From IMG/VR virus record IMGVR_UViG_2703718792_000009: a stretch of 12,086 nt of DNA; one strand, given 5' to 3'. The notes below the pieces were generated by a model that was given only the letters and a program-made list of their open reading frames with translations, was not told where the DNA came from and searched no databases. How positions within the stretch are numbered: position 1 is the stretch's first letter; each line of letters begins with the position of its first letter. Positions 2,139 through 12,086 of the stretch are shown one piece after another. Source of the DNA: a virus (taxonomy: Duplodnaviria > Heunggongvirae > Uroviricota > Caudoviricetes). A program made the position numbers and the translations under genes.

Positions 2139-3041
2139 ATGCCAAATTTACCGATGGGCGGATCGCAGGGTGAATTACCCTTAGTACCTACAGTAGAAGT
2201 TGTTGCTGATGGCATTCCTATGGGGGTGCTTAATGATGGAACCCCTTATCTAACTCTTTACGGTTTAGCCAAATTATGTGGCATAGATGAAGCACCTCTT
2301 CGAATGTTTACATCTAACTGGGAGACTGAAAAAAATAAGCCAAGAGGACAAAAAGTAGCTGCATACTTAGCTGAGAAAGGATTTAACAACGTTGACCGAC
2401 TGTATACCCGCGTCATAAATAGCTCAAACGTTGAAACACATGCTTATCCTGACTATGTTTGTATGGCTGTTCTTAGGTACTATGCCCTCGATGCCACAAA
2501 TTTTGATAGATCCGTTGCAATAGGAAACTTTGTTCGCTTAGCTGAATACACGCTCAAGCGAATGATCTATGAAAAAGCAAACTATAACCCCAACGCTGCC
2601 ATAGACGTTTCATTCGAAAACTATAGAGCTCGTATAAAGCTAAACAACCAAATACCAACAACTCATTTTGCTGTATTCAGAGAAATAGCAGATATTGCAA
2701 TGACGTTAATAGGAAATGGCTTTCCTATGGATGATACCACGTCACTAGACGGAAGCGTTGGAAATCACTGGGGAAAGTATTGGACAAAAAACAACCTTTC
2801 CGAGAGATTTGGTGATAGAGTTCAATATCAACACATTTTCCCTGAAAACTACAGGCAATCTGCAGCCAACAAGTACATAAAAGCCTGGATTTACCCTATC
2901 GAATCATTGGGGCTATTCAGGAAATGGCTTCACGATAACTATGCCATGGAAAAACTACCCAAATATCTTGGAAACAAAAAAATCAGTAACATAACTGAAC
3001 TATTGGAAGCCGTCAAAAAACCAGCATTACCAAACCAGTGA
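2139..3041 (+). CDS. Hypothetical 300-aa protein in the rexAB-equivalent slot (between cI and PL/nutL); candidate prophage-encoded anti-phage (abortive infection / exclusion) protein
   Basis: Long clean ORF; AAGGA 12 nt upstream of ATG; followed by a strong intrinsic terminator. Not RexA-like. No P-loop or obvious nuclease motif seen. Looks AT-richer than cI by eye (not computed). Confidence 0.8.
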   Translation: MPNLPMGGSQGELPLVPTVEVVADGIPMGVLNDGTPYLTLYGLAKLCGIDEAPLRMFTSNWETEKNKPRGQKVAAYLAEKGFNNVDRLYTRVINSSNVETHAYPDYVCMAVLRYYALDATNFDRSVAIGNFVRLAEYTLKRMIYEKANYNPNAAIDVSFENYRARIKLNNQIPTTHFAVFREIADIAMTLIGNGFPMDDTTSLDGSVGNHWGKYWTKNNLSERFGDRVQYQHIFPENYRQSAANKYIKAWIYPIESLGLFRKWLHDNYAMEKLPKYLGNKKISNITELLEAVKKPALPNQ

Positions 3042-3062
3042 TAAAATTATTTACGCTACAGC

Positions 3063-3767: not shown

Positions 3768-3828
3768 CTTGTGTTGGTCACCAGAAAATGAAATCAGGCA
3801 GCAAACCACTTATTTGAGAGGAATTAAT

Positions 3829-4452
3829 ATGTCATCAATCCGCTTAACTACGAGAATGAAAGAGGATATCGCTCGTAACGCTTTAATTAAGTCCGGGGTT
3901 TTCACCGAACTTGAAGAAGTAACAAAGTTAAAGAACCGGCTTGCACTTGACGCCAGAGTTGTTGCGTTTGGCGGTAAAAAGAAAACTGAAGAAGTGGATC
4001 AGTTATCATCCAGATTAATGGCTATAAGTGAAGAACTTGAAAAGATGGGATGTTCATTTTACTCATACGATGTTCGTTCTACTTCAATTTATCTGACTGT
4101 ATCTGGCAGAAGGGTTGGCTGGTATTCATATGGAAAAGACGGTAACGGCGAAGATATATTGCTCCCTACTCCTAACAGAGATAAATGCATGTTTAACGCA
4201 GAACACGAAATAACAAAAAGGTTTGATGAAATCTGCGCATTGCAACAAAAACTTGAAGCCAGGAAAAAGGATATCGAATCAAATGTATGGGCTGCTTTGA
4301 ACTCAGTAACAACAGTTAAGCGACTTATTGAAGTTTGGCCTGAAAGCAAAGAATTGCTACCAAAAGAAGCAGATAAAGCAAGTACAGCACTTCCTGCTTT
4401 ACGGGTAGAAGATTTGAATAAGATGATTGGACTTCCTTCCGAGGCCGCATAG
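3829..4452 (+). CDS. Hypothetical 207-aa soluble protein in the N to cIII interval (ral/sieB-equivalent accessory slot)
   Basis: GAGAGGA RBS 6 nt before ATG 3829 (the track ORF begins at a TTG at 3769); no hydrophobic segments; no motif I recognise; stop codon sits in the loop of a terminator hairpin. Confidence 0.7.
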   Translation: MSSIRLTTRMKEDIARNALIKSGVFTELEEVTKLKNRLALDARVVAFGGKKKTEEVDQLSSRLMAISEELEKMGCSFYSYDVRSTSIYLTVSGRRVGWYSYGKDGNGEDILLPTPNRDKCMFNAEHEITKRFDEICALQQKLEARKKDIESNVWAALNSVTTVKRLIEVWPESKELLPKEADKASTALPALRVEDLNKMIGLPSEAA

Positions 4453-4467: not shown

Positions 4468-4557
4468 GGCATAAACAACAGAATAAACACAGCACTGTGT
4501 ATTCATTCCAACGAGTGAATACACGGAGCAATTTAAAGCGTAAATAAGGAGCACACC

Positions 4558-4698
4558 ATGCAATATGCCATTGCAGGGTGGCCTGTTGCTGGCTGCCCTT
4601 CCGAATCTTTACTTGAGCGAATCACACGTAAATTACGTGACGGATGGAAACGACTCATCGACGTACTTAATCAGCCAGGAGTTCCCCAAAATGGATAA
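4558..4698 (+). CDS. cIII: cIII (46 aa), lambda cIII-like
   Basis: MQYAIAGWPVAGCPSESLLERITRKLRDGWKRLIDVLNQPGVPQNG, near-identical to the recalled lambda cIII N-terminal 46 aa; AAGGAG RBS upstream. Confidence 0.85.
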   Translation: MQYAIAGWPVAGCPSESLLERITRKLRDGWKRLIDVLNQPGVPQNG

Positions 4699-4997: not shown

Positions 4998-5705
4998 ATG
5001 GATTTGAATAAATTCGATGAGCCATTCAGCCCCGAAGATATCGAATGGCGAATACAGCAAAGCGGTAAAACACGCGATGGCAAGGTGTGGGCTATGGTGC
5101 TGGCTTATGTCACGAACCGGGCAATCATGAAACGCCTGGACGATGTTTGCGGAAAAGCAGGATGGCGCAATGAATACCGCGATATTCCCAACAACGGCGG
5201 CGTTGAATGCGGCATATCAATAAAGATTGATTCCGAATGGGTCACCAAATGGGATGCTGCTGAAAACACGCAGGTAGAAGCCGTCAAAGGTGGTCGTTCC
5301 GGTGCAATGAAGCGCGCTGCCGTTCAGTGGGGAATCGGTCGGTATCTGTATAACCTTGAGGAAGGTTTCGCACAAACATCTCTCGATAAAAAGCAGGGGT
5401 GGCACAGGGCAAAACTGAAAGATGGAACAGGATTTTACTGGCTCCCTCCATCTCTGCCGGGATGGGCAATCCCAGCATCAGATAACAAACCATCACCAGA
5501 AAATACCAACCAGAAATCTCCATCGGTTGACTGCGAACAAATCCTGAAAGACTTCAGCGATTATGCGTCAACAGAAACTGACAAGAAAAAACTCATCGAG
5601 CGTTATCAGCGTGACTGGCAATTAATGGCTGGCAACGAGGAGGCGCAGGCTAAATGCGTTCAGGTAATGAACATCAGAGTTAACGAACTAAAACAGGCGG
5701 CATAA
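4998..5705 (+). CDS. Rad52/Sak-like single-strand annealing protein (235 aa)
   Basis: N-terminal pattern DIEWRIQQSGKTRDGKVWAMVLAYVTNRAIMKRLDDVCGKAGWRNEY is typical of Rad52-family phage annealing proteins; GAGGTG RBS; sits where lambda has bet. Confidence 0.7.
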   Translation: MDLNKFDEPFSPEDIEWRIQQSGKTRDGKVWAMVLAYVTNRAIMKRLDDVCGKAGWRNEYRDIPNNGGVECGISIKIDSEWVTKWDAAENTQVEAVKGGRSGAMKRAAVQWGIGRYLYNLEEGFAQTSLDKKQGWHRAKLKDGTGFYWLPPSLPGWAIPASDNKPSPENTNQKSPSVDCEQILKDFSDYASTETDKKKLIERYQRDWQLMAGNEEAQAKCVQVMNIRVNELKQAA

Positions 5706-6173
5706 ATGTCTCACTTGGACGGAATTATTAAAAGATTCGAGTCCAGCTACAAAGTTAATGAAACAACAGGTTGCTGGGAGTCTACCTATTCAAAAAACAA
5801 AGGAGGATACACAAAATTTGTAGCCTTTGGCGTAACAATGCTTTCTCATCGGGTTGCTTTTGAGCTTTATCACTCCCCCATTCCATCTGGGAAGATGGTT
5901 TGCCACAAATGCGATAACCCATGCTGCGTTAATCCTGAACATCTCTTTTTAGGTAGCGCGCAAGAAAACATGGACGACAAGATAGCAAAAGGAAGGCATC
6001 GTGGAGCCAAGAAAGGTCATGCTCATCATGGTGCAAAATTAACAGAGTGGCAGGTTATAGAAATTAGGAAAAGACTCTCTGAAAAAGAGAGTCAGTACAA
6101 GATAGCAAAAGACATGGGTGTATCTCAATCAATTATAAGCAACATAAAAACTGGCAAGAGGTGGAGCAAATGA
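5706..6173 (+). CDS. HNH endonuclease (155 aa), free-standing
   Basis: Core [27 protein letters not shown] (HNH with Cys-rich metal site); start is immediately after the annealing-protein stop and the stop overlaps the ssb start (ATGA). Confidence 0.8.
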
Positions 6174-6676
6174 GTTCTCGCGGGATAAATAAGGTGATTA
6201 TCCTTGGTCGGGTAGGACAAGACCCTGAAGTTCGATACTCACCATCAGGAACAGCGTTCGCTAACCTGACAATAGCCACGTCAGAACAATGGCGAGATAA
6301 AAATACTGGCGAGCAAAAGGAATTGACTGAATGGCATCGTGTTGCTGTATCCGGGAAACTTGCTGAGGTCGTGGGGCAGTATGTGAAAAAAGGTGATCAG
6401 ATTTATTTCGAGGGAATGCTGAGAACCAGAAAGTGGAAAGACCAGTCAGGGCAAGACCGTTACACAACCGAGGTTCATGTCGGAATTAATGGCGTGATGC
6501 AAATGCTTGGCGGCATTGGCGACAGCAAACAACAAGCAGCCAACAGGCAATCACAGAAGCCACAGCAGCAATCATCACCAGCACAACACAACGAACCTCC
6601 GATGGATTTTGACGACGATATACCCTTTGCACCAGTAACTCTCCCCTTCCCTCATCACGCTATTCACGCAATTTAA
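6170..6676 (+). CDS. ssb: Single-stranded DNA-binding protein SSB, with a 15-aa extension beyond the canonical DDDIPF tip
   Basis: [42 protein letters not shown]...TEWHRV...[11 protein letters not shown]...[11 protein letters not shown] aligns with E. coli SSB as recalled; the ORF continues [15 protein letters not shown] before the stop. Confidence 0.9.
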
Positions 6677-6684
6677 GGACTTAC

Positions 6685-7233
6685 ATGAATCACTTAATGG
6701 TTGACCTTGAAACAATGGGCAACGGTCCATACGCGCCAGTTATTTCTATTGGGGCGGTATTCTTTGACCCGAATACCGGAGAAACAGGAGAAGAGTTCTC
6801 GGTAAATATCTCGCTTGAGTCATCAATGCGATATCGGGCGCGTCCTGACGCTTCAACGATTTTATGGTGGATGGAACAGAGTGAAGAAGCCAGAAAATCG
6901 CTAACCAGCAACACTCAAGAGCTTTCAACGGCTCTTTCATGGTTATCTGAATTCATCATAAAGAACGCTAACCACAAATTCGTTCAGGTTTGGGGGAATG
7001 GAGCATCATTTGACTGCGTTATTCTCCGCAACAGTTATTCGCTGACAGGGCAGCCAGTTCCGTGGCAGTGGTGGAATGACCGCGACGTAAGAACAATCGT
7101 CGAGCTTGGAAAGGTAATAGGATTCGACCCTAAGCGAGATATGCCATTCAAAGGAACTCGCCACAACGCGCTTGATGATGCCATCCACCAAGCCAAATAC
7201 GTTTCAGCGATCTGGAAAAAGTTAGCTAAATAA
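6685..7233 (+). CDS. DnaQ-like (DEDDh) 3'-5' exonuclease (182 aa)
   Basis: Exo I MVDLETMG (D-x-E), Exo II-like WGNGASFDCVIL, Exo III HNALDDAIHQAKY (H-x4-D); AAGGA RBS. Confidence 0.75.
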   Translation: MNHLMVDLETMGNGPYAPVISIGAVFFDPNTGETGEEFSVNISLESSMRYRARPDASTILWWMEQSEEARKSLTSNTQELSTALSWLSEFIIKNANHKFVQVWGNGASFDCVILRNSYSLTGQPVPWQWWNDRDVRTIVELGKVIGFDPKRDMPFKGTRHNALDDAIHQAKYVSAIWKKLAK

Positions 7234-7249: not shown

Positions 7250-7543
7250 ATGCCAGCGCCTTTGTATGGTGCGGATGACGCGCGCCGCTGTTCCGGCAAT
7301 TCCGTATCGGAGGTGCTGGATAAATTCAGAAAAAACTACGATCGGATAATGTCGCTACCGCAGGAAACGAAAGAGGAAAAGGAATTTCGCCATTGTATAT
7401 GGCTTGCAGAGAAAGAAGAACGCGAGCGAATTTACCAGACATCAATCCGACCATTCCGCAAAGCCACATATACCCACTTCCCTGAAATTGACCCGCGCCT
7501 GCGTAATTACCGCTCACGCTATGGCGCTATCAGTAATGACTGA
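7250..7543 (+). CDS. Hypothetical protein (97 aa)
   Basis: GGAGA RBS 5 nt before ATG; same-strand operon context; no motif recognised. Confidence 0.55.
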
Positions 7544-10108: not shown

Positions 10109-10309
10109 ATGCAACACGAACTACAACCTGATTCACTGGTTGATTTGAAATTCATCATGGCCGATACTGGCTTCGGTAAGACCTTCATCTATGACCGGAT
10201 TAAGTCCGGCGACCTGCCTAAAGCCAAAGTTATCCACGGGCGAGCAAGATGGTTATATCGTGATCATTGTGAATTCAAAAATAAGCTCTTAAGCCGCGCC
10301 AATGGGTAA
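10109..10309 (+). CDS. torI: AlpA/TorI-family excisionase (recombination directionality factor), 66 aa
   Basis: MQHELQPDSLVDLKFIMADTGFGKTFIYDRIKSGDLPKAKVIHGRARWLYRDHCEFKNKLLSRANG, a winged-helix Xis/AlpA-type fold signature; matches my recollection of E. coli KplE1 TorI; last prophage gene before the att core; CGGAGA RBS. Confidence 0.75.
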   Translation: MQHELQPDSLVDLKFIMADTGFGKTFIYDRIKSGDLPKAKVIHGRARWLYRDHCEFKNKLLSRANG

Positions 10310-10378
10310 AATAGCGGGTAAAATATTTCTCACATCTAAAAAACACCATTCCAATCAATCCCCTGCCTCGTCAAGTAG

Positions 10379-10393
10379 ATGTCTGCAGGGGAC
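10379..10393 (+). other. Right attachment-site core (attR): 15-nt copy of a tRNA 3' end (CTGCAGGGGACACCA), consistent with tRNA-Arg argW
   Basis: T-stem 3' half, acceptor 3' half, discriminator and CCA with no upstream tRNA body: the partial duplicate left by integration into a tRNA gene. The argW assignment is from memory. Confidence 0.6.
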
Positions 10394-10838
10394 ACCAGAT
10401 ACCCTTCAAACCAAATCTACCTTCACCCCGTAAAAGATGGGTTTGGCAGCACACTTGCCCTATATCTACTCATTTTTACTGCAACAGGTTGAAATCTCAG
10501 CACTGTCAGAAAGCGCTGATGACTAAACAGCCCTGGGCCGGGCGATGTAACCATCATACAGAATCCTGATAGCGAAATATGGCGTGACTCGATACTTCAC
10601 TCTGCAATGCATTCCTTGATGAATTCGCAGGCCCGTGATACACGGGACAGGTCGCTGAATGACGACAATGTCCTGGAAATCAGCGAACCGCGTATCCGGA
10701 GTACATTTGAGCGACTGTACCAGAACATGAATGAGGCGTTTGGATTAGGCGATTATTAGCAGGGCTAAGCATTTTTGTATTATTATTTTCCGGTTGAGGG
10801 ATATGGAGATATCGACAACAACCGGAAAAAGTTTACGT

Positions 10839-12086
10839 CTATATTGCTGAAGGTACAGGCGTTTCCATAACTATTTGCTCGCGTTTTTTACTCAGGAAGA
10901 AAATGCCAAATAGCAACATCAGGCAGACAATACCCGAAATTGCGAAGAAAACTGTCTGGTAGCCTGCGTGGTCAAAGAGTATCCCAGTCGGCGTTGAAAG
11001 CAGCACAATCCCAAGCGAACTGGCAATTTGAAAACCAATCAGAAAGATCGTCGACGACAGGCGCTTATCAAAGTTTGCCACGCTGTATTTGAAGACGGAT
11101 ATGACACAAAGTGGAACCTCAATGGCATGTAACAGCTTCACTAATGAAATAATCCAGGGGTTAACGAACAGCGCGCAGGAAAGGATACGCAACGCCATAA
11201 TCACAACACCGATAAGTAATGCATTTTTTGGCCCTACCCGATTCACAAAGAAAGGAATAATCGCCATGCACAGCGCTTCGAGTACCACCTGGAATGAGTT
11301 GAGATAACCATACAGGCGCGTTCCTACATCGTGTGATTCGAATAAACCTGCATAAAAGACAGGAAAGAGTTGTTGATCAAAAATGTTATAGAAAGACCAC
11401 GTCCCCACAATAAATATGACAAAAACCCAGAAGTTTCGATCCTTGAAAACTGCGATAAAATCCTCTTTTTTTACCCCTCCCGCATCCGCCGCTATGCACT
11501 GGTGATCCTTATCTTTAAAACGCATGTTGATCATCATAAATACAGCGCCAAATAGCGAGACCAACCAGAAGTTGATATGGGGACTGATACTAAAAAATAT
11601 ACCGGCAAAGAACGCGCCAATAGCATAGCCAAAAGATCCCCAGGCGCGCGCTGTTCCATATTCGAAATGAAAATTTCGCGCCATTTTTTCGGTGAAGCTG
11701 TCAAGCAAACCGCATCCCGCCAGATACCCCAGGCCAAAAAAGAGCGCCCCCAGAATTAGACCTACAGAAAAATTGCTTTGCAGTAACGGTTCATAAACGT
11801 AAATCATAAACGGTCCGGTCAAGACCAGAATGAAACTCATACACCAGATGAGCGGTTTCTTCAGACCGAGTTTATCCTGAACGATGCCGTAGAACATCAT
11901 AAATAGAATGCTGGTAAACTGGTTGACCGAATAAAGTGTACCTAATTCCGTCCCTGTTAATCCTAGATGTCCTTTCAGCCAAATAGCGTATAACGACCAC
12001 CACAGCGACCAGGAAATAAAAAAGAGAAATGAGTAACTGGATGCAAAACGATAGTACGCATTTCTGAATGGAATATTCAGTGCCAT
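10839..12086 (-). CDS. cscB: LacY-family oligosaccharide:H+ symporter, most likely sucrose permease CscB (415 aa, complete; start codon is the last 3 nt of the window)
   Basis: Aligns by eye along its length with LacY (DKLGLKKPLIWCMSFILVLTGPF...NFHFEYGTARAWGSFGYAIG... vs LacY [23 protein letters not shown]...NFEFGRARMFGCVGWALC...); N-terminus MALNIPFRNAYYRFASSYSFLFF matches my recollection of CscB. Confidence 0.8.
   Translation of the reverse strand: MALNIPFRNAYYRFASSYSFLFFISWSLWWSLYAIWLKGHLGLTGTELGTLYSVNQFTSILFMMFYGIVQDKLGLKKPLIWCMSFILVLTGPFMIYVYEPLLQSNFSVGLILGALFFGLGYLAGCGLLDSFTEKMARNFHFEYGTARAWGSFGYAIGAFFAGIFFSISPHINFWLVSLFGAVFMMINMRFKDKDHQCIAADAGGVKKEDFIAVFKDRNFWVFVIFIVGTWSFYNIFDQQLFPVFYAGLFESHDVGTRLYGYLNSFQVVLEALCMAIIPFFVNRVGPKNALLIGVVIMALRILSCALFVNPWIISLVKLLHAIEVPLCVISVFKYSVANFDKRLSSTIFLIGFQIASSLGIVLLSTPTGILFDHAGYQTVFFAISGIVCLMLLFGIFFLSKKREQIVMETPVPSAI

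Follow-up and report, generated by a model that had tools for sequence, protein, structure and literature searches.

A conserved 15-residue extension of the SSB tip in phage proteins

The free C-terminal phenylalanine of SSB, the protein that binds DNA in its single-stranded form, is treated as a universal handle by which bacterial genome-maintenance proteins find single-stranded DNA (ssDNA). The ssb gene at 6170–6676 on the + strand of a 12,086-nucleotide stretch of viral DNA (Caudoviricetes; IMG/VR record IMGVR_UViG_2703718792_000009), the whole of which we refer to as the window, encodes a protein in which this handle is internal, as 15 further residues follow the acidic DDDIPF tip. The locus raises the question of (i) whether these residues, here called the tail, are a genuine part of the protein; (ii) whether other proteins carry them; and (iii) what an SSB tip might do when it is no longer the end of the chain. 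We determined that the 15 residues are real, being a conserved, phage-specific add-on.

The ssb gene and the conservation of its tail

The gene (PHROG 44) comprises 168 codons and a stop; its ATG at 6170 overlaps the TGA stop of the upstream HNH gene as ATGA, and its TAA stop lies at 6674–6676. An oligonucleotide/oligosaccharide-binding (OB) fold, the ssDNA-binding domain, spans residues 6–104 (6185–6481; Pfam SSB, PF00436, E = 1.7e-36) and is modelled as beta strands in an AlphaFold2 monomer, with block-mean predicted local distance difference test scores (pLDDT) of about 79–87 for residues 11–80. It is followed by a Gln/Pro-rich disordered linker (residues 113–142; 6506–6595; pLDDT below 50 over residues 112–160), the acidic tip (residues 143–153; 6596–6628) and the tail (residues 154–168; 6629–6673; about 1.65 kDa), all on the + strand. 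The protein scores 166.7 bits against TIGR00621 (cut-off 53.95), and its matches to the curated SSB profiles TIGR00621 and NF004972 stop at residue 153, the last profile position, so that the tail lies outside every curated SSB model. Among the features of a bacterial-type SSB, the OB fold, the linker and the acidic tip are thus present, while the free alpha-carboxylate of a terminal Phe is not. The original prediction, drawn from the window alone, had described a canonical SSB with an internalised DDDIPF tip and 15 more residues before the stop, which is what the open reading frame (ORF), the PF00436 match and the limits of tip and tail bear out. Its premise, that the free C-terminal Phe docks into partner proteins, agrees with the established structures of the SSB C-terminal peptide (SSB-Ct) in complex with ExoI, RecQ, chi and PriA, in which the side chain of Phe177 and its free alpha-carboxylate are both bound.

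The probability that 15 codons past a motif are all sense codons is (61/64)^15, or ~0.49; a bare extension is therefore unsurprising, and it is conservation that exceeds chance. The tail is carried by the cultured phages HK75, mEp235 and mEpX2, whose SSBs are 97.6% identical to that of the window, by epsilon34, g341c and NM-3 (SSB 90.5% identical), and also by SSBs that are merely ~68% identical (ECP1, HZ41, CP-1639); a Hafnia phage SSB (59% identical) has the diverged tail APIGLMHPTHAIFSI. Compared with the common form (...PRHAIHAI), the window tail has one residue changed, R162H (CGT to CAT), a variant found once elsewhere. Asked of prophage and host ssb genes, the question whether the extension is conserved or unique has a clear answer: the tailed form occurs in 72 of 80 close viral contigs, a complete tail in 111 of the 120 nearest protein clusters (Escherichia, Salmonella, Klebsiella, Citrobacter, Enterobacter, Kluyvera and other genera), and at least 80% of the tailed ssb gene in 287 of 5426 complete E. 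coli genomes. The alternative offered with the original prediction, a lost stop codon or a sequencing artefact, does not survive the conservation of the tail over hundreds of independent sequences from several genera.

A degenerate DNA scan of viral contigs with the pattern DIPF-[AS]P[VI]xLxxxxH gave 190 matches, representing 22 tail types, and in all 190 exactly 15 tail residues precede the stop. On a minimum-spanning tree of 47 tail haplotypes we counted 132 synonymous and 64 non-synonymous changes, which corresponds to a ratio of non-synonymous to synonymous substitution rates (dN/dS) of 0.17, or about 0.29 over the ten tail positions left free by the search pattern. In an alignment of 41 homologs, picked without regard to the tail, mean pairwise identity is 0.86 for the OB fold, 0.41 for the linker, 0.94 for the tip, which is the most conserved block of the protein, and 0.76 for the tail; tip and tail are both free of gaps. 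Because its dN/dS is low, its identity exceeds that of the linker and no gaps occur, we consider the tail a selected peptide; it is ancient and under purifying selection at the protein level. The tip, being nearly invariant, is still used and not dead. The tail itself ends in AI, VI, AL, AV, SI, CL or LI. In Providencia stuartii the tip has decayed to GEWIDDIPF and the tail is intact.

Several other origins and likenesses of the tail were considered and rejected. Rfam, terminator and promoter scans found no feature overlapping it. Derivation from the 3' end of P22 abc1, the gene that occupies the ssb position in P22, finds no similarity in protein or DNA. A 59-nt match to the tail DNA under a "holin" annotation (H30), which might have been a second context, is a rearranged prophage remnant adjoining abc2; in the E. 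coli EC931 chromosome (L001), the last 59 nt of a tailed ssb are seen at 3001–3059 fused directly to a truncated holin pseudogene, with abc2 downstream and IS5 nearby, in what is a scrambled remnant of a prophage. A likeness of LPFPRHA to the PpiB-bound IRPFRKA of Abc2 (PMC9836394) was dropped, since LPF is not kept in the generic tail, which has GLQYG. When the last 33 residues were compared exhaustively with representative proteins, only 14 significant matches came back, mostly fragments.

HNH genes at both ends of ssb

Relatives whose SSB ends at IPF do exist, namely in phages Huey, Sf6 and IME10. According to the original prediction, such relatives, if one base away at the expected stop position, would have exposed the tail as an artefact or a recent mutation; they differ instead by an HNH gene of ~470 nt inserted between codon 153 and the tail. 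The Huey SSB is 96.7% identical over residues 1–153 and stops after NFDDEIPF; directly after it comes a 155-codon HNH gene whose frame continues as ...PIYPDEE-PVTLPFPRHAIHAI-stop, the last part being tail DNA; abc2 is next. An HNH gene of a second type, with 159 residues, occupies the same site in Sf6, IME10, N7 and many contigs, and 7 of the 80 close viral contigs carry an HNH gene exactly at the tip/tail boundary. In the window this site, F153/A154 (6626–6631, + strand), is empty. A search with the HNH body alone yielded 78 loci, 71 of which directly follow an SSB ending in a -DIPF tip and stop; in 66 the HNH frame runs on through an intact tail, whereas one locus contains a stop and a few others seem to have decayed. 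Members of the gp26 family of HNH proteins found at this site share a conserved HHCDY...CH.EWH motif. In six viral contigs (L374, L375, L381, L382, L385, L386) the HNH frame ends at ...PEDLEAA-stop, and the codons that follow, PPPEHSISPH, align with ...PRHAIHAI; they may represent the decayed remains of a tail after the nuclease gene.

Dozens of HNH homologs elsewhere end in ...PIY followed by 1–16 variable residues, with no tail; the HNH protein of Yersinia phage 30.14, for example, is 62% identical, lies right after a canonical ssb, and lacks the tail. The HNH-tail fusions, for their part, bear local tail variants such as ...AIYAI and ...AIHAL. For these two reasons we conclude that the tail belongs to ssb and that the HNH gene is the invader. 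The converse, a tail native to the HNH family that was left on SSB as a deletion scar, is ruled out by the tail-less homologs.

The presence or absence of the gene at an identical site, the near-identical flanks and the substitutions clustered alongside are what is expected of a homing endonuclease: eight of the nine mismatches between the Huey and HK75 ssb genes fall within nt 432–456, beside the insertion point. The other end of ssb presents a similar picture. Between the annealing-protein gene and ssb, the window carries an HNH_3 endonuclease gene (5706–6173, + strand; Pfam HNH_3, PF13392, E = 1.1e-13), which is absent from HK75, where erf and ssb abut. Ten of the 14 mismatches between the window and HK75 ssb genes, which are otherwise near-identical, lie within nt 4–16 (6173–6185), beside this gene; the SSB N-terminus changes from MASRGVNK to MSSRGINK, and E. 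coli ssb alleles without it align only from query nt 17. The stretch 5706–6173 looks like a second homing-endonuclease site, and the substitution clusters beside both genes have the pattern typical of such sites.

We propose that the conserved DNA encoding the tip serves free-standing HNH homing-endonuclease genes as a landing site, that these genes insert at the tip/tail boundary, and that the outcome would be a canonical SSB plus an HNH-tail fusion. Three proteins annotated "SSB" or "exonuclease" (P0131, P0134, P0144) are actually SSB-HNH or HNH-tail-exonuclease fusion ORFs, which indicates that deletions and frameshifts are frequent at the junction. In large lytic phages, a nuclease gene directly follows the end of the tail-encoding gene (rV5 gp208, L308; Mt1B1_P17 gp117, L304; K54_rec6 gene 56, L305), overlapping it by 29 nt in rV5. 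Mobile nucleases may generally use the conserved tip/tail DNA as a landing pad.

A portable module and its gene neighbourhood

Proteins that carry the tip together with the tail are not restricted to the classical SSB represented by the window. They include divergent PF00436 SSBs (L094, L280); DUF669/HkaK-type bodies (L112, L298, Citrobacter phage Omnitron), with a Sak4-like ATPase alongside in L112, Pantoea and Omnitron; a Vibrio OB protein as well as a classical Vibrio phage SSB; SSB-like proteins of 310–423 residues from the lytic phages phi92, Mt1B1_P17, rV5 and Klebsiella Seu621; the SSB of the T1-like phage ACG-M12, and mEp013; and one class of DNA primase/helicase, represented by those of Klebsiella phage K54_rec6 and of E. 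coli phage AV124. The K54_rec6 primase/helicase ends in ...DDDTPF followed by APIGLQYAKHAIYVI, and the module occurs at two places in this one record, in the primase/helicase and in an SSB-like protein, next to the polymerase gene. The 406-residue protein of Seu621 (L301) has its acidic motif duplicated ahead of the tail.

Across these carriers the generic tail is AP[IVM]GLQY[GP][RK]xx[IL][HY]x[ILVF], or APIGLQYGRNFIHVI in peptide form, with a core AP[IV]GLQY (rV5, phi92, ACG-M12, Vibrio phages). It is 15 residues long with rare exceptions (14 in an Aeromonas phage, 16 in mEp013). The last residue is mostly I, L or V, with Phe in phi92 and Mt1B1_P17 and Met in Aeromonas 2L372D, and the Phe of the tip is always internal. 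Tip and tail are found in 119–160 phage records, whose hosts include E. coli, Salmonella, Klebsiella, Proteus and Vibrio, and in 22 species-representative genomes (Enterobacterales plus Colwellia). Only 25 of 72,556 plasmids carry the module, 24 of them non-mobilizable. A degenerate DNA scan for tails not preceded by Phe detected 64 stretches, of which 63 are HNH-tail sequences (one stop-separated) and one is a chance match; the scan gave no case of the tail on another kind of protein. These distributions show that tip and tail travel jointly, as a single module, from one unrelated protein body to another; at least four kinds of ssDNA-binding body and a primase-helicase carry them, and the phages concerned are both temperate and lytic.

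The window itself is the early-left (pL) region of a lambdoid prophage from an E. coli-like host. Its + strand gene order begins with cII, cro-like and cI-like immunity genes. Upstream of cIII, the pL operon includes a 300-residue ORF with no Pfam match (2139–3041, + strand) and a gene with an Nmad5 domain, which is nucleotide-modification-associated (3769–4452, + strand). The cIII RNA thermometer (Rfam Lambda_thermo, the cIII thermoregulator; 88.5 bits; 4545–4603, + strand) lies just upstream of, and reaches into, a cIII-like ORF. The single-strand annealing protein (4998–5705, + strand) combines a Rad52-like core (Pfam Rad52_Rad22, PHROG 1097) with a C-terminal domain that aligns to that of P22 Erf (PMC2629481). 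Downstream of ssb are a gene for an Rv2179c/DnaQ-like 3'-5' exonuclease (6685–7233, + strand; PF16473, E = 2.8e-73), whose ribosome-binding site begins at the ssb stop codon and which only a subset of tailed loci possess, and the anti-RecBCD gene abc2 (7250–7543, + strand; PHROG 656, compared with P22 Abc2). These are followed by Ea22-like and DUF551 genes (+ strand), an excisionase-like ORF (10109–10309) and, on the minus strand, a host LacY-family permease (10839–12086). No integrase gene was found in 10310–10838, between the excisionase-like ORF and the permease, where by appearance the prophage end is truncated or rearranged, and no tRNA was found across the whole window. The SSB presumably acts within the pL recombination module made up of the annealing protein, SSB, the DnaQ-like exonuclease and Abc2.

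All-against-all clustering of the neighbours of tailed loci produced no universal partner gene. Where an annealing protein adjoins, it may be Rad52-like, Erf or Sak4-like, and some loci have none; Abc2 may be present or absent; in about 50 of 120 distinct contexts no abc2 gene was recognised, and in 37 of those neither Abc2 nor an annealing protein was found. This survey of 120 contexts rules out strict co-occurrence with Abc2 or with one family of annealing proteins. As no phage gene is common to all carriers, the partner is most likely a host protein; that temperate as well as virulent phages have the module, whether or not they bring a replisome of their own, also argues for a host partner. 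Tested against the beta-clamp-binding motif (QL[SD]LF or QLxLxL), the tail, with its P-[IV]-x-L-x-[FY] core, has hydrophobic residues at positions 2, 4 and 6, and at position 1 an invariant Pro instead of Gln. The resemblance of this core to QLSLPL, which we take to be the Hda motif, is a lead only.

Proposed function, rival explanations and known systems

We regard the tail as a C-terminal short linear motif which, HNH fusions apart, is always joined directly to an acidic tip of SSB type. We tentatively favour, as a possibility that falls short of a probability, the reading in which tip and tail together form a docking peptide of two parts: the Phe carboxylate would be buried in it, and the protein would be sent to a different partner, probably one of the host. 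Partner recruitment by C-terminal tails has precedents in T7 gp2.5 and gp4. The SSB of HK620 offers another (PMC5928155). The carboxylate would now lie within a peptide bond, so that the tip should be unable to seat in the canonical pockets of host SSB-binding proteins. The tail would in turn provide a new docking surface, possibly a short beta-hairpin, made up of the AP-[IV]-x-L-x-[FY] core, a near-invariant His and the free aliphatic C-terminus. This surface would direct the phage SSB, and in large lytic phages the primase-helicase as well, to a different partner, most likely a host protein common to Enterobacterales, Vibrionales, Aeromonadales and Alteromonadales, the net effect being that phage ssDNA intermediates are marked as owned by the phage and not by the host. 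With slightly more reserve, we consider it conceivable that this undescribed, phage-specific peptide engages or blocks a host hub protein that canonical SSB leaves alone. The host range of the carriers, which takes in these four orders, coincides with what we take to be the clade having SeqA, Dam and MukBEF together with PriB, PriC and DnaT, a coincidence that would narrow the candidate partners.

Four points weigh against redirection to a host partner. Sf6 and Huey, in which an HNH gene splits the locus, leaving a free-tip SSB and placing the tail on the nuclease, are viable, so that the tail on SSB must be dispensable, at least in the laboratory. The AlphaFold2 monomer gives the tail a weak beta-hairpin with a pLDDT of only 43–53, a low-confidence prediction and no more than a hint. 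The sample behind the dN/dS values came from a pattern that fixes 5 of the 15 tail positions. Lastly, by analogy with T7, the tail shared by SSB and helicase in rV5-like phages could bind the phage's own polymerase, and partners would hence differ from phage to phage.

An explanation we regard as unlikely is that the tail docks a cognate phage protein, the annealing protein in small phages and DNA polymerase in rV5- and phi92-like ones, on the T7 model. The ssb gene does abut the annealing-protein gene in lambdoid, Vibrio BT-1011, ACG-M12 and mEp013 loci, the K54_rec6 primase/helicase and SSB-like protein share the module next to a polymerase gene, and Sak4 requires the HK620 SSB tail (PMC5928155). 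However, the neighbours of the motif may be of Rad52-like, Erf, Sak4-like, DUF2303 or HD-domain type, some of its phages have a polymerase of their own and others do not, and no neighbour family is common to all tail types; the Erf-type C-terminal domain, moreover, is also found where SSB is tail-less (Yersinia phage 30.14) and in P22, a phage without any SSB. Rather doubtful, in our estimate, is the idea of the original prediction, which had the protein sequester ssDNA or act as a dominant interferer: a pure mask, in which the tail just blocks the Phe carboxylate so that the SSB coats ssDNA without host nucleases and helicases, or poisons mixed tetramers. The binding of SSB-Ct through its terminal carboxylate in the established structures fits such a mask, as does a module that is phage-specific and not plasmid-borne, but nothing in the role of a cap calls for a fixed length of 15 residues or for sequence conservation, a tip put out of use would be expected to decay and not to be the most conserved block of the protein, and ssDNA sequestration is hard to square with the module on a primase-helicase.

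We also find it improbable that the tail marks the protein for regulated degradation, or that it is a pro-peptide whose removal by cleavage exposes the tip. It invariably ends in non-polar residues ([AVSC][ILV]-COOH) that come after basic or His residues, as a degron would; presumably it resembles ssrA or MuA-type ClpX signals. Removal would account both for the conservation of the tip and for the viability of HNH-split alleles that make a free-tip SSB directly, and the F/AP junction is near-invariant. Against this stand the presence of the module on presumed replication-machinery proteins of lytic rV5-, phi92- and T1-like phages, for which it is of no consequence whether a protein is cleared once lysogeny has been decided; the conservation of the N-terminal half, AP[IV]GL[QP][YF], which goes beyond the needs of simple C-terminal degrons; and the absence of the motif from other phage proteins except HNH fusions. 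It is very improbable that the peptide is functionless, with its frame kept open for translational coupling of the next gene or carried along as a homing hitch-hiker. The ssb stop does lie 8–13 nt ahead of the next start codon, with the ribosome-binding site beginning at the stop, and homing endonucleases do cluster at the tip/tail site; yet coupling would keep a frame open and not preserve an amino-acid sequence, synonymous changes far exceed non-synonymous ones, and unrelated genes follow the tail (abc2, exonuclease, methyltransferases, a phosphatase-like gene, HNH genes). A sequencing artefact, recent stop-codon loss or the scar of a deleted HNH gene is scarcely credible: deletion and frameshift derivatives exist at the locus (P0131, P0134, P0144), and CP-1639 pairs the HNH-type tip (NFDDEIPF) with a tail, but the tail occurs in hundreds of independent sequences, diverged tails co-vary with diverged bodies (Hafnia, Proteus, Vibrio, Colwellia), and HNH homologs outside the tip/tail site have no tail.

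What appears to be new here is the extension, conserved, portable and specific to phages, of an SSB-type tip. The SSB Phe handle is internalised in a large number of phage proteins by a conserved, portable 15-residue motif, and its carriers include model or therapy-relevant phages (rV5, phi92, PVP-SE1, T1-like phages, HK75, epsilon34). This bears on the open question of how phages keep their own ssDNA transactions apart from those of the host, and on recombineering, for which pairs of SSB and annealing protein are picked by SSB C-termini. It also bears on annotation: tailed proteins are currently labelled plain "SSB", and the HNH genes at the tip/tail site are annotated as Rec-module nucleases although they look like mobile elements. 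Docking to a host hub, if true, would constitute a new interface by which phages take over the host at the fork of replication and recombination, and would account for the homing endonucleases crowding the tip/tail site.

Neither the motif strings nor an extended SSB tip appear in any paper of the searchable library, and we found no description or experimental study of them; a 2025 survey of lambdoid Rec modules describes SSB-1 proteins as experimentally unstudied and leaves the "shuffling of partner interaction domains" for later (PMC12315714). The only earlier mention of the tail that we found is the GenBank note on Sf6 gp26, the HNH protein, which "contains 14 contiguous amino acids identical to E. 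coli SSB", with no interpretation given. Genes 27 (ssb) and 26 (HNH) of Sf6 are the same locus as that of the window, with the HNH gene inserted in Sf6, whereas the window has nothing at this site and carries the tail on SSB. Conserved phage genes can be split or truncated by free-standing homing endonucleases, known examples being the seg and mob genes of T-even phages and mobE in nrdA of Aeromonas phage Aeh1. The tip/tail site resembles these in the presence or absence of the gene at an exact position, the adjacent substitution cluster and the fusion of its frame with a remnant of the host gene; it differs in that insertion of the putative homing-endonuclease gene strips a C-terminal motif from SSB and hands it to the nuclease.

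Compared with E. coli SSB-Ct, the hub for ExoI, RecQ, RecO, PriA and chi among others, the window protein is alike in its OB fold, disordered linker and highly conserved tip, and unlike in that its tip is internal, with 15 conserved residues after it, and in that it lacks the free Phe carboxylate by which tip docking is defined. In T7, the acidic, Phe-ending C-terminal tails of the SSB gp2.5 and the helicase-primase gp4 share one site on the DNA polymerase/thioredoxin complex. K54_rec6 similarly has one C-terminal module on an SSB-like protein and on the primase-helicase of the same phage (no helicase was seen in the window). However, the aromatic residue is internal here and the end mostly aliphatic, unlike the terminal aromatic of the T7 proteins, and the module is also present in phages without their own polymerase or helicase, such as the window prophage. 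The last six residues of HkaK, the SSB-2 (DUF669) protein of HK620, NDYPPF, are needed for stimulation of Sak4 (PMC5928155), so that there the C-terminal peptide of a phage SSB recruits a partner. In HK620 itself the chain ends with a free PPF and lacks the tail; proteins homologous to the HkaK body (36% identity) carry both tip and tail.

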